A DNA stretch of 61,923 nt, counting the filler, from Bonamia ostreae (taxonomy: Eukaryota), in the NCBI GenBank assembly GCA_040357525.1. It is 26 parts of 26 records of this genome, joined end to end, with 100 filler letters (N's around TTAATTAATTAA, not from the genome) between each part and the next. Parts side by side here need not be neighbours in the genome. Positions count along the whole stretch, not along the records: positions 31,161 to 33,441 come from JBDODL010000923.1; 25 more parts are not named here. One strand, given 5' to 3'. The notes under the pieces are model-generated. The model searched no databases. It was given only the letters and a program-made list of their open reading frames with translations, and was not told the DNA's origin. The position numbers were made by a program, and so were the translations under genes. Positions 2,415-59,499 of this stretch are shown here, piece by piece (the first letter of the stretch is position 1; every line of letters begins with the position of its first letter).

Positions 2415-4725
2415 GGCGAACGATCCTGAAAACGGAAAATCTACGAGGCTAATAGTGAAAAACTTGCCGAAACATTTAAATGAAAAAAGGTTGACAACCA
2501 TCTTTAGCAAACATGGTGCAGTGACAGATGCTAAAATAATCAAAAGAAACAAAAAGTCTCGATTATTCGGTTTCATTGGATACAAAGATATTGAAACAGC
2601 AACTGAAGCGAAGAATTATTTTGATAAAACGTATATTGACACCTCAAAAATTCTAGTTGAATTCGCATTAAAACCATCTGTTTTTAATAATGGCAAAATG
2701 CCCAAAAACTAAACTTCAATGATTCTTAAAAATTAGGATTGCTCAGTGGCATGGTCGAAATATTCAAGTAACACGAAGAACAAAAGATCCAAAAATTTTA
2801 AAATAACCAAAAAGCAAAAAACAACAAAATCAGAAGACGAACACAAAATTGTCGAAAAATCAGAAGACGAAGAATTTAATCAATTTCTGGAAGTAATGCG
2901 CCCTAAAACGTCACTGAAACAATTTGTAAAAGGCGAAAAAGAACAACCGTTGAGCAAAATTGACAAAACTTCTCCCAAAAACGACTCAGAAAACGACAAA
3001 AATTTATCACTAAAAAGCACTCGAAAAAAAAGAATTTTTGTATTAAACATTCCATATTCGGCCACAGAAAAAGAAATTGCAGATTTCTTTTCTGTCTATG
3101 GCAACATTGAAGAGGTACATCTTCCCCAAGATATGTTAAACCGTTCAAAGGGATTTTGTTTTGTACGTTTTGTGGACACTAATTCGGTGCAAAAAATCTT
3201 AACAGAGCAAAAAGTAATATTTCAGGGCAGATTATTGCGAATAAAAGTTGCTGCAAACAATCCAAACGAAAATTTTGATGTTTTTACATTAAAATTTTTA
3301 CATTAAAATTTTTTTTCAAGTCAAAAAAAGTCTTTAAAAGACATTTTTAAGTTTTTTGTTTGTCCCAATTTTCGATATTTGTTTGTTGCAAAATTTAAAA
3401 AAAAAGATATTTTCGATATTAATAAAAAAAGATGGACGACAAAAACTACAAAAAAACGAAAATGAGAAAAATAAGAAAGGATTATCAAAAAGCGCCGAAA
3501 AATTATTGGAACAATCTCTTTCTTCGTTCTGACACAATCGCGGATGTGGTAGCAAAAGAAAAGAACATTTCAAAAGAAGATTTACTGAAAGACGACGACA
3601 AACAAAGCGCTGTAATTTCCACAACTATTTTTAAAGGCGGTCAAAATGGCGTTGAGCGAGACTAAAGTCATTTCCGAGACGAAAGACTATCTCATCAAAA
3701 ACGGTGTTAACGAAGATATTTTTTCTTTAGATTCATTGTCTAAATGCAAAAGAAGCAACCGCTGCATCATTGTAAAAAATCTCCCGTTTTCTACGAAAAA
3801 CGGGGAAATCGAAGAAGTGTTTACAAAACATGGCGCCGTCGATCGCATTTTGGTGCCACCCTCCAAAGCCTTAGCGATTATTTTGTTTATGGATTTTTTG
3901 GATGCAAAAAAAGCGTTGGATTCAATAATTTTTTAGGTACCAATTATTAGCTTACAGAAAATTCAAAAATGTGCCGTTATATTTGGAATGGGCGCCCGAA
4001 AATATTTTTTCGAGCAAATCAAATGTGCAAATGGACAAAAGCGAAAAAGCGACTAACAACAAAAACAAAAACGAGAGAATTTCTGGATTTTCTGGATTTT
4101 CGGTTCAATCTGAAAGTTGCACTGTTTTCGTGAAAAATATCAGTTTCCACACAAAAACGGAAAAACTGAGAAAGCTTTTTTCCACTGTAGAAGGATTTCT
4201 TTCGGCGACTGTTAAGACTAAAAAAATTATTGATGAAAAAACGTTTAGATTACGGACCATTTTTGTAGCTTTAAGAATATATGTAATGTCGTAATTTGTG
4301 TAAATATTTTGCAAATAATGGTAACAGATCAAATTTATAATAAAGTTTTGATCAAAATAATTTTTTGAAAGTTTGTAAAATAACAATTTTAAAAAATGGA
4401 CAGAAAAAAGCTAAAAGAACTGAGCTTGGGATACGGATTTATAGAATTCGACAATTCTGAGAATGCAAAGAAGGCCATTAAAACTTTGCACAACGTAAAA
4501 TTAGACGGACATGAATTGAGATTAAGCTTTTCATATAGCTCGACAGGACTGAAAAAGGATACAAAAAATGACGATGATATCAACTCTAAACTAATAATTA
4601 AAAATCTCCCGTTTGAAGCTACTTCCAATGAGCTTAAGCAACTTTTCGGTGAATTCGGAGTGATTAAATCATGCAGATTGCCAAAGCGAACTCAAAGCCA
4701 CCGCGGATTCGCGTTTATAGAATTC
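2415..4725 (+). CDS. RBM19: Multi-RRM ribosome biogenesis factor RBM19/Mrd1 (partial, spliced)
   Basis: Several RRMs (RLIVKNLP..FGFIG, KGFCFVRF, GYGFIEF, HRGFAFIEF) and the family motifs AWSKYS, WNNLF, AVKMALSET, AYRKFKNVPLYLEWAP. Frame is restored by GT-AG introns at 2680-2736, 3280-3431, 3612-3636, 3915-3936 and 4243-4403. Confidence 0.93.
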
Positions 4726-5487: not shown

Positions 5488-6962
5488 TCAAATTCTCTGA
5501 AAATTCGATTTCGGCCTTGAAATGAACGAAGGAACCAGATTAGTTTGACAGTTTGAACACAAAAATCGCGTCGTCCTCTCTTCGAAGTCGATTCTGAAGA
5601 CGTTCTCTTTTCCACATTCCGCGCAGTCGCGAGCCAAAGTTTTCGCGGGCGACGTCGCGATCTTCTCGAAAATATAAATCCTTTTCGCGACTTCGGCCGA
5701 TTTCGCCCGAAGCTCCGCCACCGCTTCGCCGATTTTCCGGTTCGTCGTGTTCCGGCTCGACAGAATTTCGCTTTGGCGTTTTTCGTTCTCAGCTTTAACG
5801 CGCAGCCGTTCGGCGAGAACAACTGCGACGTCCTGTTTCGCCGAGGCGATTTGTGTTTTGTATTTTTTCCGCCCGATCTTCGCCTCTTTCAGAAACGCGT
5901 TGTAACTGTTCTAAAAGTTGTTTGTCGGAACGATGTCTTTCAGTGAATCCGATTTGGCTTGCGCGAACTTTGCGATTTTGAGGACAGTCGAAAGCAGATT
6001 TTTTGAGTGTTCGCTCGCCTGGAACTGGCGATGTTTGACCTGCGAGATTTTTCCCAAGTGCTCTGGCTTTTTTCTGCGCTTTTCCTCCGTTTCGACTTTT
6101 TCGGCGAAGACGGCGAAATGGTCTTTCCGCGAGACGGCTTGCGAGATTTCGTTCCGCAGTTGTTTTATTTTGCTCCGGAGCTTTTATTTTGTTCAGAAAA
6201 CGATGTGGAACGACTTTATCAAATGGTTGAACTTGGCCTCTTCGGCCGAGACCGACTCGTTGAGCGAGATCTTCTTTCCTTCGATGAAGAACCTGTCCTT
6301 TTCGAGACTTTCATTGATCGCTTCGAGGACGCGTTCTTGTCTTTCTATTTCGTCCAAGTGCTCGATTTCGCGTTTTTTGAGTTCGGACGTCTTCTCTTTG
6401 AGAATGGCGATTCTTTCGCGGGACTTTTGATCGTCGAAGGAAAGTTCGTTCTTCTTCACGATGAGGCTGTTCAACGATTCTTCGAGTTTCTTGCTTCGTC
6501 TGTTCTCCCATTTTAGTTTTTCTAACTCGGTTTTCATCGTTTTGTATTCTGAAATCTTCGTGTTTTCCAAGTTTTCGAACGGTTTTCTGTTCGTCGAATC
6601 GCCCAGTTGCTCTTCGTAGTTTTGCTGTTTCTGGACTTGTAAAAGTAAACCGAATCGATTTTTAGTATCGAATTCTGCAATTTTCTGATTTTGCTTTGCT
6701 TTGCGTTCAGCTTTTCGGCGTGCTCTTCTTCCGAAGTGTCGTTTTCGCTCTTCTTTTTCAGTCTGTTGTATTGTTTCAGCAAGGAAGAGTATCTGATCAT
6801 AAAGGGCTTCTCTTCTCCGTCTTGGCCTAAAATTTTGTAATTAGCCAATATCCTGTTGGTCGGAGAATCGTTGTTTTTGAAAAGAATGTCCTTTTGGTTC
6901 AATGTCGAAACTTTTTCAAAGGCGGACAGGGAAACTAGAAGGGCGTCTTTTGCTTCCTCCAT
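5488..6962 (-). CDS. Long coiled-coil protein with C-terminal CxxC...CxxC zinc ribbon (spliced)
   Basis: E/K-rich ORFs 6534-6962 and 6193-6570 can be joined through 21-26 nt GT-AG introns to the frame ending CAECGK..FLCSNCQ at 5488. Confidence 0.55.
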
Positions 6963-7231
6963 TATATTCTTTAATATGATCTAAAATTGGCACTATATAA
7001 CATGCCGGTTAAATCGCTATTTAGACAAGAATGCTAGAACTGTCGATGTCCTCAATAACTGAAGCTTGGCAAATATGTAGCGGTGTAGAGATTTGATTAA
7101 ATCCAAATTTGTTTTAATAAATCGCCAGCTTNNNNNNNNNNNNNNNNNNNNNNNNNNNNNNNNNNNNNNNNNNNNTTAATTAATTAANNNNNNNNNNNNN
7201 NNNNNNNNNNNNNNNNNNNNNNNNNNNNNNN

Positions 7232-9369
7232 ATATCCTTCAATTATTTTTTGAACAGATATAGATTTCAGTAAAAATTTCGTTAATTTTTTTGTTTCTAA
7301 ACTAAGTAAATTTTTTTGTTTTGTATATCCTCTCATGTATCTTTTATTCATACTTTGCCAAATCTCCTCCAATTTCGTATTTATTTTATCTGGTTTATAA
7401 AACTTTAACTGGTATTTAAAGTTCTCAATATGGTTAATAACACACAAATTCGTTTTTTCTTTTAGAGAAATATACTTATTAATATCCTTCAAATTTATTA
7501 ATATGAACATCAAAAATATCTTTTTGATTATTTGCAAAGTCTTCATATTTTATAAACTGTTTAAGACACATATATTTCTTTCTAAAATAATCATTCTTGC
7601 TTATTAATGAAAAATTTATCCAGCTTTGTTGCCTTTCATATTCTTTCGTGAGCGATTTAATCTTAAATATGTATATAAATATTACTTTTCTAGGTTTATT
7701 ATAAAATTTTTCATGAAAAAGTGGAAATGTATCATTTTTAAAAGCTATGTTCATTATGTTTAGTCCCGATTTATCTGGAGGCATACAATCGTATTGGGCC
7801 TTGACTTTATTAAATTAAACTTTATGAATAAGAGTTGAATCTTTGATAAAATCACTTTCGGTATTATTTTGTATCTTTTCGTCGAAATACAAGACCCTTG
7901 AATCCAAAACATCCTATAAGTGTTGTTTAAAACATCTTTTAAACTTTCTAGAACCATATCTATAAAAGATTGGAACATTTGAGTATTCGATAACGATGTA
8001 AAAAATTTTTTTGTATCCTCAGTCTTTGAACTTATGAATTTTTCTTTATCGAAAAGTTTTATTTCTTACATATAATTTATATTACTTTTATCTGCATCAT
8101 ACACGATTGCTTTCCTATAATTTTCTAAAATGCATCCAAAAAATTCAATGAATGCTTCACGAATTTTGTAAATTTTGTAATTATATTCTAAGTTCTTTTA
8201 ATTTAAGTTTGTTTACCTTGATTCTTTTATCTTTTTTATTTTTGTTTTCAATCTAATATATTTTTTAATAACTAGTTTTTTGACTTTTTTCTGCAATTTT
8301 TTTGATAAGGATTCTGGAATTAAATCCAAATGCCTGCACTTAAATATGTTAATTGAATTTTCGTCTAAATCAATGATAATCGTATCTGAAAGTTGCATAT
8401 CTTGTCTAAGTTGAGATTTTAATATACCTTAAACATTAATAATAAAACCACATATAAATGGAATAGGTGCTACTAGATAATCAATATAATATATTGGAAG
8501 AACTGGAATGTATATGTGCATCCAGTTAAATGGAAAAATTAAAGTACGATATGATTCGGTGACACAAGTTAATTTAGAAATATCATTTGATAAAAATATT
8601 ATCCTTTTATTATTAATATTTTAAACCTTTTTTCATTCAAAATTCCAGATAAGCAATGGATTATATTATTAACACTCAAGCAATTAAATAATTTTAAAAA
8701 ATCGTAATGTAGATAGTTCAGCTCGTTTGGAGGAGCTCTGGTAAAAACTTGCTCTAAACCACTGAAAGATATAGTTTTAACTTTAATTTTTCCCCACGGA
8801 GGAAGAGGAACTTCAAAAATATAATTCGAAACAACTCTTTCGATTGGTATTTCACTAATTTAAATATTTAAAACTATTCATCGAACAAAACAACATCATT
8901 CCTTTTATTTTTGTCAGCCATTGTTCTTTCATATAATCCAGAAAGAAATTTTTTAAAATTGTCGAAAAATGGCCAATGAGAAGATATACATATCCCACGA
9001 TAGGTACTTTAAAAGTTTTGTTTATAATAGGATTATTGATTATTTGGAAACAGTGTTTACACGATTCCGGTAATTAAAACCTGTTAGACTCCTTATACAA
9101 TAAGCAAGATCCATATATCATACTTGCATTTTTTTCAGTAAGAATAAAAAAATGTTCTGAATTATTTTTAGAGGGAAGATACTTGCTTTCGTATGGATAA
9201 CAAAACTGCATTTTAATAAAAAAAAATCCACCTTTGCAATATTTTTGGGAAATACAGCGTCGTCGTGATCATTAAAAGGGTATCTTGATATAACTTTCGG
9301 AACTTTAGATTCACTTTTGTATTCAACTATGACAACATAATCACAAACTCTATCAGGAAGAGAATTCAT
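7232..9369 (-). CDS. DENN-domain Rab GEF (uDENN-DENN-dDENN), 3' truncated
   Basis: Spliced translation gives VISRYP..FP..IAKFCYP, YGSCL, GICISSHWPFF, EVPLPP, LIFPFNWMHIYIPVLP and APIPFICG. Introns at 9206-9231, 8855-8874, 8604-8626 and 8428-8448. Confidence 0.88.
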
Positions 9370-16847: not shown

Positions 16848-18889
16848 TTACTGAATATTCGGAACTCCCTGTTGCGCCATTTGCTGCTGATCTGGATTTT
16901 TAGACACACCCGACAAAATGTCATCAATCCGCAACAAAACCGTCGCCGTCTCAAAAGCAGTTTTGATCGCTTGTTGCTTCACCGAAAAAGGTTCGAAAAC
17001 GCCCAGCTCAGAAACATCGCAGACTTCGCCGCTGTCGCCGTCAACTCCCAACAAACTGTCGTTTTCTTCGTGCGCAGACCGAAGCTTTGCGATGACTTGG
17101 GATACATTGGCGCCGGCATTTTCTCCCAATGTTTTCGGAATTATCTCAAGCGCGGAAGCGGCGCACGCAAAAACTCTCGCCGCGGCTTCGCTTTCTTCGC
17201 GCGACTGTTTTCTGAGCACAGTGGACATTGCCATTTCGGAAGCGCCGGCGCCCGGGACGACGCGCGGATCCATTATGATGTTGCGCACGACGCCCATTGC
17301 GTCCGTCAGGTTTCGCTCGATTTCCGCGAGGCCTTCTGAGCTTGACCCTCGCAGAAGAACGCTGCACGCTTTTGGCGAATCGCAGTTTTCAAAGAAACTC
17401 CAATAATCGTCGCCCAATTTTCTTACTTCGAAAAGAGCGCATTTTTTGCCCAAATCGGTTTCTTTCATCGAAGTCGAGTTGCTGCCGACGCGGGCGCCTG
17501 TCGCCATTGCTAGACGGTGGAGATCACTTTTGCGTACGCGGCGGAGAACTGAGACGTTTTTCTGGAGAAGAAAATGCTGAGCGATGTCAGAAACGCCTTT
17601 TTCGCAGATGACGATATCTGGTTCGAGGGCGGTGATGGCTTCACAGAGTTTTCTAATGTGTTCTTCTTCGAGGTCGAGGTATTTTCGCCAGTCCTCGGCT
17701 CTGTTCATTTCGATGTTCGTCTCGCTTTCTGCTTTTTTGTATTCTAACGGGCAATCCAACCTGTTTTGTAAATTTTTGTCGTTTTTGGTTTTGGGACAAT
17801 TTTACAGTTAAATTTTGTTTGGCAATTTGTGATTTGCAGTTGTTTTACAATTTGTGATTTGCCGACTTTTTTTCAACACACAAAAATTAATTTGTGATTT
17901 ACAATTTATTGTTGAGATGACAATTTTGAGATTGTCGACTCGACATTTGCGATTTTTTGGCGATTTTCGCAAAACATAATAAAGTTTTGAATAATTAATG
18001 AATAATTAATGATTCAATTACATGTGAATAATAATTAATGAGACGGAAGAAACATTCTCGCTAAAAATACTATATGGAAAATAACTAAATCTAAAAAGCT
18101 CTTATTAGCAGATATAATCAAAATTTCAAATCCGAAAATAGTTTGGAATGGAGTTGATGAGAAAAGTGATAAAAACAGCATAATGCGTGGATTTTCGATG
18201 CGTCTTCTCATGGCGGCGTGGAGGATATCTTTGTTCAGCATAACGCCCTTCAAAACTCTCGACGAATCTATTTCGCCGCCGGCCACCTTTTCGACTTTGA
18301 CCAGCGCTCTCAGATCGGACGTCCTCTTCCCCGATTCCTCAAAGGAAACAGTTCTGACTGCCTCCACGGCCAGGCGCGGGATCAAGTTTCCGAAACGCGA
18401 AACTTGTTTAGTGCCCAGAGCCGTCACCGCAAAAGACAACAGTTGTTTCGGATCAGTGGGATCCACCTCGCGCGCGCATTTTTTCAGAGCTTGGAGACTT
18501 AGGTCGGCTGCTCGACGATAGGCGCCGACGATAACGGAGGGATGCATTCCGCCGGAAAGCAGAGGGCGGACCGCTTCCATCAGTTCGCCCGCTAAAACGA
18601 CCACCGAAGTGGTTCCGTCTCCAACTTGTTCGTCTTGCGTCCGGCTCAACTCGATCAAACTTTTAGCGGCTGGATGGCGCACTTCAATTTCTCTGAGGAT
18701 GCTAGCTCCGTCGTTTGTGAGGACAACGCTTCCGGTGGGGTCCAAAAGCATTTTGAGCATCGCTTTGGGGCCGAGCGTGGAGCGGACGATGTCGGCGATG
18801 GCCTTCGAGGCGGTGATTATCCCCATCTGCGCCTCTTTGCCCGTTTCTCTTTGCGCGTTTTTGTTGAGAATAAGAATCGGCGCATTCAT
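16848..18889 (-). CDS. CCT3: T-complex protein 1 subunit gamma
   Basis: STLGPKAMLKMLLDP, QDEQVGDGTTSV, and RRRIENPRIMLLDCPLEYKK formed across one 416-nt intron (17761-18176, GTTTTT..CAG); also KACSVLLRG and LLRIDDILSG. Confidence 0.97.
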
Positions 18890-26390: not shown

Positions 26391-27134
<744 letters not shown>

Positions 27135-27394: not shown

Positions 27395-28420
27395 ATGCCC
27401 CCATTTTTGAAACTCTTGTTATTGCTGTTTCTTCGCCCTAAAAACGGAGAATGCACTTTTGAAAACACTGAAACTCAATTCAACGTCTACAACGTCTCGA
27501 ATTTTTACGAAAAAATTACAGACGAGTCTTTTTCGATAAAAAATGGTCTCTCGATATTCGTAAACTGTGCAAAAAATATTTTATACGAACAAATAATTAG
27601 CATCGGGTACGTCATCTTGTATTGTGACGAAACCTCTCTAGTCTCGCAATGGGACTATGACAAAACAAATGCAAATTATCATTGCGATAACATATTGCCG
27701 GGCACCAAAATGGTGATGTGTGCTATTTCTGATTCGAGCCAAATATATTACCCGCACATTCAAAGCGCTCATAAGTACTTGCCAAACGGGCTCAAAACTA
27801 GCGCTACGTGTAAAGGCCAGGAATGGTACACCTTTAATGTGCAGTGCATGGAAGGGGAAAATGTCTACACAGACAAAAACTCAAACCTTCTAAAATACGA
27901 CCAAATCTGCACAGATTTGGTCAATTGCTGTGATCCATTGTTGGTGCCGCTCCCTTTGGTGCCTTCAACATACGAAAAGACGCCAAGCTCAAAATCACTC
28001 GAAATTACTTGTTTCTACGACCAAAAAAAATATGTTTTGGACTGCGAAAATAAACAGTTCGAATACGGGGATAACCAAACAGCAGTAACACAGGATTTCG
28101 CTTATTCGATTTGCGGAGACCCAGAATTGCAATGTGACACAGCAAACGTCGCAGCCCCCATTAAAGTAAAAGACGGAGACCAAAAGCTGAACAATGGAAC
28201 TAAAACAAAAGCATATTGTTCTAACGGCGCTAGCGATACCGAGTTTAATTTGCTGTGCGAGAATACTTTTTGGTACATTGAAGACGAAGAAAGCAACAAA
28301 GTAACGTATATAAACGTAACCGACGAATCAGCGAAGAGTTATTGCAATGGAGCAATTAATGATAAGAAAATTGCGTTTTTGGTCTTGGTTTTGAATTTTG
28401 TTCTGTTCTTGTCGATTTGA
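27395..28420 (+). CDS. Cysteine-rich secreted/surface protein with Sushi(CCP)-like repeats and hydrophobic C-terminus (GPI-like)
   Basis: Intronless 341-aa ORF with a signal peptide, repeated ~60-aa four-Cys modules, and tail GAINDKKIAFLVLVLNFVLFLSI. Confidence 0.75.
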   Translation: MPPFLKLLLLLFLRPKNGECTFENTETQFNVYNVSNFYEKITDESFSIKNGLSIFVNCAKNILYEQIISIGYVILYCDETSLVSQWDYDKTNANYHCDNILPGTKMVMCAISDSSQIYYPHIQSAHKYLPNGLKTSATCKGQEWYTFNVQCMEGENVYTDKNSNLLKYDQICTDLVNCCDPLLVPLPLVPSTYEKTPSSKSLEITCFYDQKKYVLDCENKQFEYGDNQTAVTQDFAYSICGDPELQCDTANVAAPIKVKDGDQKLNNGTKTKAYCSNGASDTEFNLLCENTFWYIEDEESNKVTYINVTDESAKSYCNGAINDKKIAFLVLVLNFVLFLSI

Positions 28421-28789: not shown

Positions 28790-28975
28790 GAAACATTTAG
28801 TCAATTCTCTTGTTACAATTGTTTCCAAAAAGAACTTTTAAACATAAAAAATATTCAAAGTCACAATTGACAGTAAAATGTAACTTTTGAAGAAACATTT
28901 AGTCAATTCTCTTGTTACATTTGTTTCCAAAAAGACCTTTTAAACAAAAAAATATTCAAAGTCACAATTGATCGT
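28790..28975. repeat. ~102-bp direct tandem duplication (intronic)
   Basis: AAACATTTAGTCAATTCTCTTGTTACA... occurs at 28791 and 28893. Confidence 0.85.
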
Positions 28976-28984
28976 AAAATTTAC

Positions 28985-29408
28985 CTTGTTGAAATTGTTC
29001 GAAATAAAAACCATTTCCAGATTCTTCATTTAACAATAAACACTCTTCCGGTTCCGCATATATATGAACTTCATCATCATCAAGAAGATCACAACCTGCA
29101 CGACACTCAACTATTCGAAAAGGGTTATAAATATCTGCACTCGTCCAAATACCATTCTCACATTTATAAAGAGAAAACGCCAACTGGAAACCCCCTCCGA
29201 TCTCTTTATTTGTCGGAGCATTGAAATACCCTTTTGATATGTCACATGTCATCAATGCCGATTTGTTTGCTTTGTTATACAAAACTGATTTGAGCACATC
29301 TGAAGAGGGTGGACTGTCACAAGTACTTTCAAAATTTGCTGTTTCTTGATATTAAAAACGAGTGTATGCTTGAAGCAAATTCAACAAACCCAAAAAAATA
29401 AAAGCCAT
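28985..29408 (-). CDS. Secreted Sushi/CCP-domain protein (5' part)
   Basis: MAFIFLGLLNLLQA signal, 21-nt intron 29339-29359, then CDSPP...TCDISKGY...YKCENGIWT...EC. Confidence 0.7.
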
Positions 29409-29489: not shown

Positions 29490-30429
29490 TTATCGTCTTT
29501 TTCTGCCCGAATATTTACTGTCCTTCGACAACTTTATCCCCTTTCTCCGCAGCCGATCTTTTTTGGCGATCAAATTGCTTTTAATTCTTTTCTGTTTTCT
29601 CGTCTTTCTTTTCGTAAATTCTGCAAATTGACCTTCCATTCCCGAATTTTTGGAATTAAAACTTAAACTTCTATGCTCCAAACCATCTCTCGAATTTTGG
29701 CCTTTAACGTTTTCGGAAAGGCTTGTTTTCATAAACTCGCCCGCCTTTAGACACAAATAAAATTTTTTGGCTTTTTTGCTTTCTGGGAAGTCGACAACCA
29801 ATCCCCCGCTGAAACCCGATTTCGCTGGGAAACGGGTCAACAAATCGAGTTGTTTTTTATTTTCCGGATAAAACTGGAAAACGGCCCTTCGAAATGATTT
29901 TTGTTGGGCGTTACAAACCAGGCGCCTGGTTTCATGCACCTATACAAAGAGTCGAACAATGTTCGAATCCTGTGGAGGGGGTTCTGCTTAGACGTGCTGG
30001 CATTGCAAATCCATTGCAGAGCAGAGACGCTGATGCAGCCGTCGAAAAAATTTTCTCTGAAAGGCAAACCGTGGCCCATATCGGCGAGGCTGATTTCTGG
30101 ATTCAAATGGCGTTCTCTGCAGATATCTTCAATTATTGAATAGAACCGAGCATTGAAGTCGAGATGTCGGTTCCGATCCAATAACAGTTTTTATCGCGCA
30201 GGATTTCGCCGCTTAGACCAGAACCGCAACCGATGTCTAAGACGACATTGGGGGTTTCCAGGTTTAACTGCATTAACTCGAATGCTCTTTCAGACATTTC
30301 TCTTTGGATTTTATAAATCCGAGAGCTTTAAATATGGATTTTTTAATGGGACTTTTTAGTGTAGTCTTTAGAGCGTTCTTGGTTGTAATAATATTCTGGA
30401 GGCGATGTTAATTCTGGTTTTTTCGGCAT
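29490..30429 (-). CDS. BUD23: 18S rRNA guanine-N7 methyltransferase Bud23/WBSCR22
   Basis: PELTSPPEYYY, SRIYKIQREMSERA, LDIGCGSGLSG, ISVSALQWICNA, FQFYPEN, GFSGGLVVDFPESKKAKK, DSKYSGRKR. Confidence 0.95.
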
Positions 30430-31424: not shown

Positions 31425-32403
31425 TTAAAACTCGTCTTCGATGGAACAAATCCAATCTTCGAACTCCCCCTCGTCTAAAGCTTTTTCACATATTTCGGGC
31501 AAAATCATTTCGTCGATAAAACTTTCTGACTTCGGACTATTCAATAAGCTGTCAACCAATGCCAGAGCGCTCTCCGATTTTATATAAGACATTCCAACGC
31601 TTCTTAAAAAGAGGCCCACAGAAGGAGCGAGAGGGATTTGTTGATCGCAGTTTCTGTGAAAACATCTTTCCAATTCTGATTTTGAAAAATCGTCTTTTCG
31701 GATTGCCCTTATCGCGAAAGCAACCATTTTCCTGATTTGGTGGTATATAAAGCTCTGACCTTCAACTTCTAAAATAATAAATTCTTCGCCTTTGTATCCA
31801 AACACGGTTCGCACTTTGAAATGATTAACGTAGCGCTGGAACGTGTGGAATCCCTTTTGACTCGCTTCTTTCATCCTCGAAAAATTGTGGAAAAAATGCG
31901 CTCCCTCGAAAAGCGACAATATATAATTTAGTCTGACCAGGCACTCCAATCTGCCTTCGAAATAATTCTGTGGCATTATGGAAGATGGAAAGACATACCA
32001 GTACTTTCTCGAAGAGCAATTACGATGACAGTCGAATTTCCTCGGGAAAATCGTCATCGTGACAACTCTGATGTCGAGAGGAAGGAATTTGTTTATTTGG
32101 CGTCGCAGATCTTTGATGTTTTCGAAAGGATTTTGTGTGTAGAAAGATATGGTCGACCCGGCACTGTGCACTCCCTTAAATCGGTCAGAAAACTTTGTCG
32201 GTTCTCGAAACCCGCTTAAAACTAATCTTGCTCAGTTTGTCTGCATTTCTATAAAAAATAGCGCCGGATTTGAAGAGAGCAAGTTGGAGACATCCTTCAA
32301 TGGTATCAGGAACAAGATTGCCGTTGATCTGAGATCCCTTGTAGCGGGTGCCGAGATAACTAATCAAACAAGCGACCTTAACTAAAAATTTGGTCGAAAA
32401 CAT
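31425..32403 (-). CDS. PUS1: tRNA pseudouridine synthase, TruA/Pus1 family
   Basis: SYLGTRYKGSQ; the catalytic SRTDKGVHS is formed only after removing a 19-nt intron (32175-32193); also FHNFS and GQSFIYHQIRKMV. Confidence 0.9.
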
Positions 32404-34761: not shown

Positions 34762-35469
34762 ATGTTCACAAAAGTAGAAGAAATAAATACAATAGTTGAC
34801 AAAACACGTTCATATTTTGAGAAAGGCGCCACAAAGAAAATCACGTGGCGCAGAAAACAATGGCTCGGATTGAGTCATTTTGTAAAGACAGAGGAAACCA
34901 AAATAAAAGATTGTCTCCGCAAAGACTTGAAGCAAACCGAAATTTTGGTCCAGGCTGGAGAAATCGCCATTATACAAAATGTTATTTTTAAACAATAAAG
35001 TCGGTAAATTTGGCATTAAAAAAACTTGACGACTGGTGCTATCCGAAAATAGTCAATGATTTGCCTTTGTCTGTTTTTCCGTCCAAAGCGTTTATAGTTC
35101 GGGAGCCACTCGGAGTGTGCGCGATTTTAGGGTAAATTTTAATGAATTTAGTGTTTGGAATTTTCCATTTCTGACTGTTTTGGAGCCTTTGGTAGCAGCG
35201 ATTGCGGCCGGGACCTCTGTCGTCTTGAAACCATCCGAAATTTCTTCACACAGTTGCAACTTGATTTTCGAAAAGGTTTGTCGTTTGTGCATATTTTTCC
35301 AATATTTACATAACATCGTCCATCAAATGCATTTACAAATTTTTGGTTCACAATAAAAAACTTAAAGCTGCCATTGTATGTTGATTCGCAAGCGATATCG
35401 ATTATTACCGGAGGACCGGAACAAGCTGTAGAACTTTTGAAACATCGATTCGATCACATCTTTTATACC
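34762..35469 (+). CDS. Aldehyde dehydrogenase family 3 (partial)
   Basis: REPLGVCAILG-VWNFPF, AIAAG..VVLKPSEIS and FDHIFYT; includes 20-nt introns such as 34981-35000. Confidence 0.88.
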
Positions 35470-36237: not shown

Positions 36238-37031
36238 TTAATGTTTTCTTATCAGATTACCTTTCTCCTCCGGCTGGTTTCTTTTGTGTTTCGCGTTTAA
36301 TCTTTTCTTCTTCTTATTAATAAATCTCTCCAAATTTCCTTCTTTCTTGAGTTGTTCAAACTTATCTCTCATAACCAGCTTCTTTATATCGGCTTTAAAA
36401 TTAGAATCATTATATTGTGAATCCTTTGTAGTTTTTATATTAGACATTTGCAACTATCTGCAATCAAATGATATTTCAATATCTAACCTACAAAAGTACA
36501 ATTATATTGAAAGGCGCAATGTTTTTCGTTTATTGCCCAAATCTCAAAATTTTTATAAAATCCTAAGAAGGCTTCAACAATGGCCAATTACGATTAAACG
36601 GAAAATTAAAAACATTGTTTTGGAAAGAACATTTTCTTTCCCTTTTTCGTAAGAGACCGTTCTCTTTTCAACAAATCGCTTTTCTTTTCGCGCAAAGCGT
36701 CGTTGTACTTTCTAGTTTGCAATTTGGAATTCTAAAGTTTGTCTTTAGGAACCAATTTTATCAATTTCTTTCCAAGTCGAGATTTCTCTTCTCGGGATTT
36801 TGAATGGCGCATATCGCTTTTTATGTTTTCGATTTCTTCTTCCTCCAATTCGTCCAAAAACTTATAGTTGTCCCTGAAATGAGTTTCATTAAAAGAGCCA
36901 TATTGCTTTTTAAAGCGCGGGTCGATTTTTCTCTTTATTCTTACACGTGGAATTGTTTTCTTCGGTGGCTTTTTAAAAGATATTTCCCGCGGTCTTTAAT
37001 TTCGGATTCAAAACCTGTCCTCGTTCGACAT
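36238..37031 (-). CDS. RRP36: rRNA processing protein Rrp36
   Basis: Spliced MSNEDRPREISFKKP, DPRF, NYKFLDE and KFEQLKKEGNLERFINKKKKR. Confidence 0.85.
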
Positions 37032-44335: not shown

Positions 44336-45264
44336 ATGGTTTCTAAAATTTCCAAACTGACCAAAAGCGACATTTACGCTGAACTGCAGAAGCGGCAACT
44401 CTCGCAACGAGAGATCGCCGCCAAATTTCAGGTCAGCAGAATGACGGTCTTCCGCATCAACCGTCAGCTCCGGCTCGCCACCGGAATGAAGAAGTACGTT
44501 TTCCTTCTAATCCATAGACCGTCAAGCGGGTCGCAGCGTGGCCTCCCCGGAAAAAGGCGCTGCCCAAAAATAAAGATGGCCGTTGCTCTTCGAACGGGGT
44601 CATCAAGATGGCCATCCCGCCGCCGCCTCCGCCCAAGAACGCCGGTCGAAAGACGATCAAACAGTACGAGACGCTCGACTTCCTCGTGCACCGCTGTTTC
44701 CTCCGCGCGAGCCCGTTCGTGCGCATCGACACGAAAGTTCTGAAGAAACTGAGTCTCGCCGTGGGGCAGCGCCTCGAGTTGGCGCGCTTCAAGGCGTCCA
44801 ACAACTGGATCGCCAATTTCAAGAAGCGGTTCGGCATCCGCCTGCGCGACCTGAACCGCGCAGGGCGCACGAAGGCGGAGCGCGCCGACTCGCCGACTTG
44901 GGAAGGGCTCAGCCCGGACGAGGTGGTGGACAAGTCGGTGGACAACGTTTTTAGGGAGTTCGGTCTCGGGCGCGGCGCGGCGAGTCTGATCAAGATGGAG
45001 AAGTTGCGTCAGACGGCGCCGGGGCTGGTGAAGAGGGAGAGCGGGATTGTGGTGAAGAACGAGAAGGGGCGGTTGCCGTTTGAGTCGCAGTACGGCAAGC
45101 AGAACGGGGGCCCGAGGAGGAAATTTAGGCGAGCGAGCCAGTCCTTGGAAGAGATGTTCAAGGATTTCGAGCAGGCCGTCGCCAGCTCTGCGCCGGCGCT
45201 GGTGAAGCGGTTTGCAAAGTTTAGGAGAGATGTTTATTCTGTCGTAGAGCAATTTGATAAATGA
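44336..45264 (+). CDS. CENP-B/pogo-type tandem HTH DNA-binding protein (~302 aa), no DDE domain recognised
   Basis: HTH LSQREIAAKFQVSRMTV; 20-nt intron 44498-44517 joins it in frame to the Tc5-type HTH FKASNNWIANFKKRFGIR; stop at 45264. Confidence 0.8.
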
Positions 45265-55548: not shown

Positions 55549-56401
55549 TTATTCAAAATAAGATTTTAGAATAGGCCACATCTTATCAACGCCCAAACGC
55601 AAATCAAATCTTTGAAGCAGCCCCCTCTCCAAATAAGCCCTTTTTATCGGTCCATAATTGTCTTTGTAAAGGTTCAATCTCTTTTCGATAATTTCTCTGT
55701 TGTCATCGGCTCTCTGAAACAACTTTCCGTCGCATTTGTCACAATGTCCCGTTCGTTTCGGAAGAAGCGGCGGCATTTTGTATTCTTTTGTGTCGATTGA
55801 GTACAAATTGTACGATTCGCCGCATTTTTCACATGCTCTTCGAGCTAAAGCTTTTTCTATCAAAATCTCTTCTTTGAGATTGATTTCCAAAACAAGATTT
55901 ATCTGTGATACTTTGTCTAGAAGATGTATTTGTTTAAGAGTTCTTGGCACTCTTTTCATTTAATTCAATTTTTGTTTAAAATTATTTTAACGTTCGAAAT
56001 GTCAATTTTTTTTTAATTATTTTAACGTTTGAAATGTCAATTTTTAAAATTATCTAACGTTCGACAATTTTTATTAAATTTTACAACCCGTCAAGAATAT
56101 AGCCGTTGAGAGCGTCTTTTTCGCGGATGCGGTCATTAATAATTTCCATTAACAAAAAATCATCAATAAAATCTCCTCTCGCAGTGATTTCTTTAACTTT
56201 GAGACCAGTTTCAGTTTTGTTTTTGATGTTTTCTCTAATAAGATCACCCGAAGAAATGTGAGGAATTTGCAGAAATGGTGCCAGTCTTTTCGCGTAAGTG
56301 CCCTTTTGTTGTATTTAAATAACTTTTCCGCTTCCTGGTGCACCAACAAAGACTATATTTTTACCTTTTCTTAATAAAGATGTTATAATTTTTTTGTCCA
56401 T
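55549..56401 (-). CDS. Adenylate kinase, long type with Cys4 LID
   Basis: GAPGSGK|GT (21-nt intron), HISSGDLIR, GYILDG, RRACEKC..CDKC..QRADD. Confidence 0.92.
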
Positions 56402-58764: not shown

Positions 58765-59499
58765 ATGCTAAGAGGTGTTAAATTAGCTCAATTGAAACCA
58801 AAAATTGGGTTTCTTCAAAAAAGGAACTTTCGTTCCGATTTCGCCGGAGTCAGCGGATTTAGCCGCTTCATGCTTCACAAAGATCCTTATTATGAGCAAA
58901 GAGTAAAGGAATACACCGAACCTAAAAAACCCGCCATTACAGTTTCGGTTACAGGCGCTGCTGGGCATATCGGATATGCTCTGCTTTTTAGGATCGCTAG
59001 TGGACAAATGTTCGGGCCAAACCAGCCCGTTTATATAAACGCGATCGAACTCCCTTTCGTTCTTAGCAAACTTCGCGGAGTCGTTTAATCAATTATAGCC
59101 ATTCTAAAAGGAAATGGAATTGAAAGACTGTGCGTTTCCACTTCTGAAAGGAATAAAATGCACTGACAAATATGAAGAAGGTTTTGCGAATACCAATTAC
59201 GCGATTTTGGTCGGGTCGAAACCTCGTGGCCCAAACCAAGAACGATCTGATCTAATAAAAGACAACGGCGTGATTTTCCAAGGCATTGGCAGAAGCTTAA
59301 ACAAACACGCAAACACGAATTGTAAAGTGTTTGTAGTCGGGAATCCGGCGAACACAAATTGCCTGATTTGCGCACACAACGCTCCCGATTTGGATCGGAA
59401 AAATTTCACCGCAATGATGCGTCTAGACCACGACCGGGGTTTGGCCATGGCTGCTGACAAAGTTGGGCAGGATCCACAACACTTAACAGAATATTTTGT
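58765..59499 (+). CDS. Malate dehydrogenase, cytosolic/Thermus-type family, with presequence-like N-terminus (partial)
   Basis: [37 protein letters not shown] (28-nt intron 59083-59110), VVGNPANTN and RLDHDR. Confidence 0.93.

Follow-up and report, generated by a model that had tools for sequence, protein, structure and literature searches.

The smallest intron that can be removed, and why, is an open question in splicing. In humans an intron fails once fewer than about 46-50 nt separate its donor from its branch point (PMC11291888), and several protists splice introns of 15-25 nt; what is said here of the cited work is confined to the parts of each paper that were available. The described introns that the short introns of the present genome (Bonamia ostreae, GCA_040357525.1) work most like are those of the heterotrich Stentor coeruleus, which are 15-16 nt long and carry a putative branch adenine at position 10 or 11 followed by a 5-nt tail, as given in the available part of PMC9505925. 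Both sets are GU-AG and AU-rich, with a position-fixed putative branch adenine, a tiny predicted lariat, a short 3′ tail and no strong branch consensus, but the predicted lariat is 12-14 nt here rather than 10-11, the tail is at least 6 nt rather than 5, the donors are GUU rather than GUA, and the sizes are non-uniform (19-30 nt together with 80-400 nt).

Mikrocytos mackini and Paramikrocytos canceri offer a second point of reference, as reduced eukaryotes with very short GT-AG introns: the accessible text of PMC10245619 describes 224 introns, all of 16-17 nt, sequence-conserved and with none in metabolic genes, and proposes a functional length threshold that acts against deletion bias. The floor described below fits that proposal, though here the introns are many, at least 19 nt long, weakly conserved and accompanied by long introns, and they do occur in the genes for malate dehydrogenase (MDH) and aldehyde dehydrogenase (ALDH). 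The nucleomorph of Bigelowiella natans has introns of 18-21 nt in which the branch adenine is said, in the part of PMC6009652 at hand, not to be discernible. Its modal size is almost equal to ours and it shares the high density and the GU-AG ends, but it is a 0.37-Mb nucleomorph, whereas the present genome is nuclear, measures 10 Mb and includes genes for mitochondrial proteins, and in our case a branch-like adenine can be discerned and long introns are present. Entamoeba, for which a partial view of bioRxiv 10.1101/2022.06.08.495308 gives GUUUGU(U) donors, a co-evolved U1 and, in E. invadens, a putative branch adenine about 8 nt from the 3′ end, resembles this genome in that adenine and in a donor U at +3 and mostly at +4, but the +5G/+6U consensus is absent here and only 9 of 449 donors read GTTTGT, which is not the GUUUGU code.

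Abundant introns below 30 nt with reduced splice-site motifs are found as well in lineages that differ from this one, namely the myxobolid myxozoans and Dicyema (median 22-27 nt; PMC13644364, in part) and Paramecium (about 25 nt; PMC8997360, in part). Closer to the organism, the available text of PMC13746701 states that intron numbers and sizes are drastically reduced in ascetosporeans, and PMC11069148 reports that B. ostreae has canonical introns, the lengths being absent from its main text and four supplementary files; our search of papers outside subscription found none with haplosporidian intron lengths or branch positions. Tiny introns being already known in several lineages, the surprise is moderate, and what is new here is that four features occur together: a floor of 19 nt, GUU donors, a candidate branch window that can be read from the sequences, and long introns alongside the short ones.

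Short and long introns in the window

The window, meaning the whole stretch of DNA that was analysed (61,923 nt, filler included), is made of 26 unrelated contigs of 2267-2314 nt each, ordered by length and joined by N44-TTAATTAATTAA-N44 spacers (for example at 2315-2414), and genes on either side of a spacer are unlinked. Its first contig is G000:C909 of a fragmented assembly of 10.29 Mb in 7503 contigs. The genes in it are eukaryotic and nuclear, among them CCT3, PRMT1, DENN, RRP36, CNOT1, nicastrin and a mitochondrial-type Hsp70 whose database matches are bacterial, and no tRNA or Rfam match was obtained in the window. An earlier note on this DNA had named 11 segments of 19-28 nt as spliceosomal introns, as follows.

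32175-32193, minus strand: 19-nt intron of a PUS1/TruA-like pseudouridine synthase gene, exons 32194-32403 and 31425-32174
8855-8874, minus strand: 20-nt intron of a DENN-domain gene, between PF02141 positions 4-34 and 36-110
8604-8626, minus strand: 23-nt intron of a DENN-domain gene, between PF02141 positions 36-110 and 108-162
8428-8448, minus strand: 21-nt intron (3n) of a DENN-domain gene, giving a stop if retained; the downstream exon has no profile match
3612-3636, plus strand: 25-nt intron of a multi-RRM gene, GTA donor, restoring a 623-aa open frame
3915-3936, plus strand: 22-nt intron of the same multi-RRM gene, inside an RRM, where the RRM_1 match ends at position 57 of 70
26812-26837, minus strand: 26-nt intron of PRMT1, between positions 7-75 and 76-145 of the PDB 8z2z chain
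29339-29359, minus strand: putative 21-nt intron (3n) with an in-frame stop, after a hydrophobic N-terminus
34981-35000, plus strand: 20-nt intron of ALDH, between NF045701 positions 3-75 and 73-117, with weak E-values
44498-44517, plus strand: 20-nt intron of an HTH/Tc5-type DNA-binding gene, from frame restoration and ab initio prediction, with HTH matches in both exons
59083-59110, plus strand: 28-nt intron of MDH, between NF003916 positions 3-55 and 56-185

The multi-RRM gene is presumably RBM19/MRD1-like, Pfam itself having returned RRM only. All 11 segments begin with GT, end with AG, have the lengths first given for them and leave an open frame once excised; the donor is GTT in ten and GTA in one, and six lie on the minus and five on the plus strand. 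Such ends are common by chance, with about 245 GT..AG pairs at every length in the window and no peak relative to 30 dinucleotide shuffles, and even the GTTT..AG spacing departs from the shuffles at 20, 21 and 22 nt by z of only 2.3, 1.9 and 1.4. The spacing taken alone is uninformative rather than negative, and support must therefore rest on homology and RNA. Homology bears out the reading of these segments as real introns at six of the 11 sites, where excision joins consecutive profile or PDB positions (PUS1, MDH, PRMT1, ALDH and two in DENN). For another four (3612-3636, 8428-8448, 29339-29359 and 44498-44517) the evidence is frame restoration or an in-frame stop, and the weakest case is 29339-29359, for which neither a homologue nor a Pfam match was found.

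The 19-nt PUS1 intron, as first proposed, holds up well. The junction joins TIGR00071 positions 2-53 to 54-224. Six GT..AG excisions open the frame; against an HMM built from homologues the highest score goes to the 19-nt one (275.4 versus 262.6 bits), which leaves an RTD motif that P0242, a relative with 47% identity, also has. Its sole candidate branch adenine lies at +13, which in this intron is also -7.

Further introns, both tiny and long, were placed in the window beyond this list.

36994-37014, minus strand: predicted first intron of RRP36, 21 nt
36732-36752, minus strand: RRP36 intron, 21 nt, between PF06102 positions 6-88 and 90-127
36393-36613, minus strand: long RRP36 intron, 221 nt, between PF06102 positions 90-127 and 127-165
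30127-30146, minus strand: intron of a BUD23/WBSCR22-like methyltransferase gene, 20 nt, between Methyltransf_11 positions 1-31 and 25-94
55952-56087, minus strand: long intron of adenylate kinase, 136 nt, between PF00406 positions 9-81 and 83-148
17761-18176, minus strand: long intron of CCT3, 416 nt, between PF00118 positions 1-207 and 206-487

RRP36 thus carries introns of 21, 21 and 221 nt in one gene, and two more, of 27 and 32 nt, are predicted in the BUD23/WBSCR22-like gene; the 416-nt intron of CCT3 is the best-looking among several candidates that open the frame. Long introns of 81-416 nt therefore share the window, and genes, with the tiny ones.

Length distribution and RNA evidence

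Lengths were taken from a gene finder of our own, with a flat intron-length prior from 10 to 120 nt and no branch-point model, which was run on the 26 window contigs and the 80 longest contigs (788 kb, with only the first 10 kb used of any contig above 10 kb), and an intron was counted if both flanking exons were at least 45 nt. The 981 predicted introns include 6, 8 and 7 at 16, 17 and 18 nt, followed by 72 at 19, 113 at 20, 53 at 21 and 57 at 22 nt, and then by 36, 24, 26, 22, 14, 15, 17 and 11 at 23 to 30 nt, beyond which the counts level off at a background of about 4-6 for each length, false calls included. In 40 held-out contigs alone the same step is seen (3, 26 and 45 at 18, 19 and 20 nt). 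The length floor therefore lies at 18-19 nt: introns of 18 nt are rare, those of 19 nt are the first to be common, and 20 nt is the mode. Two other gene models were dropped: a loose one over-joined genes, and a length-informed one run on the window was set aside as a catalogue, having recovered only 4 of the 11 named introns since in the window it fuses genes and chooses the wrong strands.

Introns of 19-29 nt make up 449 of the 981 predictions, occur at about 1.3 per kb of coding sequence and are present in 231 of 357 predicted genes, which justifies the word pervasive used for them in the earlier note; they are pervasive but not exclusive. The size range proposed there, 19-28 nt, has to be redrawn, for while the tiny introns are real, the modal range is 19-22 nt, the tail runs to about 30 nt, and introns of 81-416 nt stand alongside. 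The same spread, with 449 of 981 predictions at 19-29 nt and homology-supported introns of 136, 221 and 416 nt, differs from a uniform range of 2-4 nt, and because long introns coexist with short ones the genome falls outside the uniform-length class of Stentor, the mikrocytids and the nucleomorph. Micro-introns likewise account in part for the fragmentation of open reading frames that had been attributed to them, long introns and the division of the window into 2.3-kb contigs contributing as well. A gene finder or aligner whose shortest permitted intron is 20 nt or longer will overlook or wrongly place introns of 19 nt, which are 72 of the 981 predictions.

RNA was compared at L017 (G000:C16:1-10000), a long contig rich in predicted introns that lies outside the window. 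One data set, X1, consists of assembled contigs from one study, is RNA by guess only, and shares 0.48 of words; a further run, X2, shares 0.00 of words, and nothing from it aligned. In the eight of 316 X1 records that were listed, seven segments of L017 are missing, of 19, 21, 19, 24, 21, 23 and 23 nt, and all seven are GT..AG once the 24-nt gap is shifted by one base. The predictions made before the X1 alignment included six of them, and the seventh belongs to an unpredicted transcript on the opposite strand. Every predicted L017 intron that is bridged by the eight records is absent from them, and two records start at the first base adjoining another predicted intron. The contigs that carry the deletions are otherwise 95-100% alike, and in one record a deletion is opposite in strand to four others. 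Short GT-AG segments have thus been removed from these putative RNA contigs, and the RNA comparison suggested in the earlier note was to that extent favourable, with the reservation that it concerns DNA outside the window and contigs that are RNA by guess. For 13 other predicted introns in covered bins of L017 there is no gap among the eight of 316 records listed, and positions 5679-8016 have no X1 cover. RNA contig 5 runs through a predicted 17-nt intron at L017:5343-5359 (minus strand) with no gap, extending only 9 letters past it, in line with predictions below 19 nt being false. Lariat or branch reads were not seen.

The 21-nt intron with RNA support at L017:3273-3293 (plus strand) lies between a cullin-like and a Na+/H+-exchanger-like gene, both named by inspection, and implies that a small gene or spliced transcript missed by the predictions lies at that place.

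A positioned adenine and a probable basis of the length floor

Among the 449 predicted introns of 19-29 nt the donor is GTT in 402 (about 90%, a share that may be slightly inflated because the donor PWM was self-trained) and GTTT in 296, while GTRAG occurs once, a G at +5 in 48 and GTTTGT in 9. The acceptors are AAG in 226, TAG in 133, CAG in 84 and GAG in 6, and there is no polypyrimidine tract, with 51% pyrimidine at -12 to -4; the canonical GTRAG donor and polypyrimidine tract, which are typical but not defining of U2-type introns, are absent from this set.

Within the short introns an adenine recurs at a restricted position. For a window of [+13,-7], fixed from a first data set before the held-out test, held-out introns have an adenine in 16 of 26 at 19 nt (9.5 in shuffled interiors, P=0.0085), in 40 of 45 at 20 nt (28.0, P=0.0005) and in 24 of 25 at 22 nt (20.5, P=0.032); the excess is not significant at 21 nt (22 of 23, P=0.17) or above 22 nt, the test having little to no power at 23 nt or more. 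With a wider window of [+12,-7], picked after seeing the data, the counts are 66/72, 113/113, 53/53 and 57/57 at 19, 20, 21 and 22 nt. Decoys, that is GTT..AG segments matched in length and similar in A content that were drawn from coding and non-genic DNA, have the adenine less often, in 158/246 and 277/378 at 20 nt against 105/105 introns and in 149/280 and 218/397 at 19 nt against 59/63, and overall they reach only 53-86%. The adenine is present in 7 of 7 RNA-supported and 11 of 11 named introns. An EM fit places it at +12/+13 in 19-nt introns, at +13 (then +14 and +12) in 20-nt introns and up to -7 in those of 21-22 nt, in the context Y-Y-A-[A]-not-G. This context resembles the canonical branch motif. 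Predictions of 18 nt that start with GTT have an adenine at +12 in four of six, which is not significant, and there are fewer AG dinucleotides with the A at +18 to +23 than expected (7 versus about 25).

We put at about 0.8 the probability that the short introns belong to the ordinary major (U2) type of spliceosomal introns and have shrunk to a geometric floor. Each would open with GUU(U), go on to a stretch rich in A and U and a weak branch motif (Y-Y-A-[A]-not-G), and close with A/U/C-AG, with the positioned adenine as the putative branch point and the spliceosome as the probable agent of cutting. No fewer than 12-13 nt would separate the branch adenine from the 5′ end, this being the smallest lariat loop that could be closed (a loop of 12-14 nt), and no fewer than 6 nt would follow it up to the 3′ end, which puts it at -7 or further upstream, and the first usable AG past the branch and the tail would be taken as the acceptor; from the lariat and tail limits together a floor of 18-19 nt would therefore follow. 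Deletion bias would drive the shrinkage and bring many introns to the floor, with others remaining at 80-400 nt. The 19-nt floor and the candidate branch window (+12 to -7) agree numerically, which gives a testable minimal geometry between that of Stentor (a 10-11-nt lariat) and those of ordinary eukaryotes. We would give even odds to the stronger proposition that a lariat of at least 12-13 nt and a tail of at least 6 nt form a two-sided ruler that can be read from sequences and, if the organism is a haplosporidian, an intermediate stage (19-nt floor, GUU donors) towards the 16-17-nt introns of the mikrocytids. If the geometric reading is true, the coexistence of short and long introns would make the minimum geometry of the spliceosome visible apart from selection for uniform length, and, should the organism be a haplosporidian, the published idea of a functional threshold would become a measurable prediction.

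The adenine might instead be a by-product, arising because the 3′ ends are A-rich or because early AGs are selected against, with the floor set by some other length sensor. The predominance of AAG acceptors (226 of 449), the missing polypyrimidine tract and the report that in the B. natans nucleomorph the 18-21-nt introns have no discernible branch adenine (PMC6009652, in part) would all suit such an origin, yet the peak drops sharply at -6/-5 (27% and 25%), so that it is separate from the acceptor, its 5′ edge stays at +12/+13 over lengths of 19-23 nt, the adenine has a Y-Y-A context, AG with its A at +13 occurs 0 times versus 14.5 expected, and decoys of similar A content have no such peak; we regard the by-product origin as improbable. 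It counts against the geometric reading that long introns have no 3′ adenine peak. A far more sceptical view, that the segments merely resemble introns and arose from misassembly, from frameshifts in decaying genes or from DNA insertions specific to a strain, could appeal to the plentiful chance GT..AG pairs, to the fragmentation of the assembly and to the guess on which X1 is taken as RNA. It is already largely refuted by the exact continuity of homology models at six sites, the sharp onset at 19 nt, the common donor and adenine position and the seven precise GT-AG deletions in X1 contigs, features that errors would not have in common, and we give it hardly any weight.

More serious, although we hold it somewhat less probable than even, is the proposal that the spliceosome itself has been rebuilt, with GUU(U) donors that lack +5G recognised either by a U1 that has co-evolved with them, in the manner of Entamoeba, or for the most part by U6 together with proteins, and with a reduced or trimmed core setting the floor. 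The donor counts speak for it (GTTT 296, GTTN 402, GTRAG 1 and +5G 48, each of 449), and there are precedents in Entamoeba (bioRxiv 10.1101/2022.06.08.495308) and in the reduced spliceosome of the mikrocytids (PMC10245619), both as described in the available parts of those papers. Against it, GTTTGT is too rare (9/449) for the Entamoeba code, the same genes also have long introns that are spliced, and Stentor, according to the accessible text of PMC9505925, splices introns of 15-16 nt with conserved U1, U2 and U6, so that tiny introns need not imply altered snRNAs. The machinery itself is partly in evidence, with 14 LSM (Sm/Lsm) matches on 13 contigs and SKIP/Prp45. The inventory proposed in the earlier note thus succeeded for these, and U6 and U2 were not found by an Rfam search of the 7503 contigs, nor were three domains of Prp8 by Pfam searches; a U6 motif gave six two-mismatch matches, the same count as in the reversed control, none of which scored with Rfam. 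In so fragmented an assembly the missing U6, U2 and Prp8 say little. The claim that the spliceosome is specially adapted to very short introns gained no support from these searches; the same genes carry introns of 81-416 nt and the machine is therefore not restricted to tiny substrates as it is in mikrocytids, nucleomorphs and Stentor. A rebuilt spliceosome is nevertheless compatible with a geometric floor, and neither excludes the other.

Genomic setting and other observations

The code is standard, with genes ending at TAA and TAG. Ciliate-type reassignment, by which TAA and TAG are sense codons in Paramecium, is thereby ruled out, as are a nucleomorph, from the genome size and the genes for mitochondrial proteins, and gene-sized nanochromosomes, from the absence of telomeres at contig ends. 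The description of the introns as lying in nuclear genes with a standard code, near the low end of the known spliceosomal size range, agrees with these results. Contig C1 is nuclear rather than mitochondrial. An AT-rich contig, L001 (G000:C7503:1-2932), has a bacterial-type SSU rRNA, one tRNA and a partial LSU rRNA, and is probably a fragment of the mitochondrial genome.

The placement of the organism was approached through several markers. At least two divergent actin genes are present, on L022/L024 (G000:C259) and L023 (G000:C159); the nearest database actins are 92%, 85% and 81% identical and are environmental sequences, the nearest PUS1 being P0242 at the 47% given above. A metagenome scan returned a best identity of only 73% and no close relative. 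Thymidylate synthase, wanted as a fusion marker, was not found in the fragmented assembly. Rhizarian polyubiquitin has a one-residue insertion at the monomer junction that some rhizarians have lost, according to the part of PMC6133090 that was available, and at the only junction assembled here the insertion is absent and F replaces M; given those losses, its absence does not exclude Rhizaria.

Across the window contigs GC ranges from 23% to 47%, and several of contigs 4, 9, 10, 17, 22 and 26 have no confident gene; some of these may be repeats or non-target DNA. The 303-aa gene at 44336-45264 (plus strand) has an N-terminal HTH and a Tc5/CENP-B-type DNA-binding domain, with no transposase domain found, and is possibly a domesticated transposase. 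Cysteine-rich proteins with hydrophobic N-termini and no Pfam match are encoded at 27395-28420 (plus strand) and 28965-29400 (minus strand), and a similar one is predicted on L032; together they possibly represent a lineage-specific family of surface or secreted proteins. Finally, in the polyubiquitin gene (L042, the last 330 nt of G000:C1173) the third codon is interrupted by a GT-AG segment of 23 nt, excision of which, read by eye, restores the invariant start of ubiquitin.
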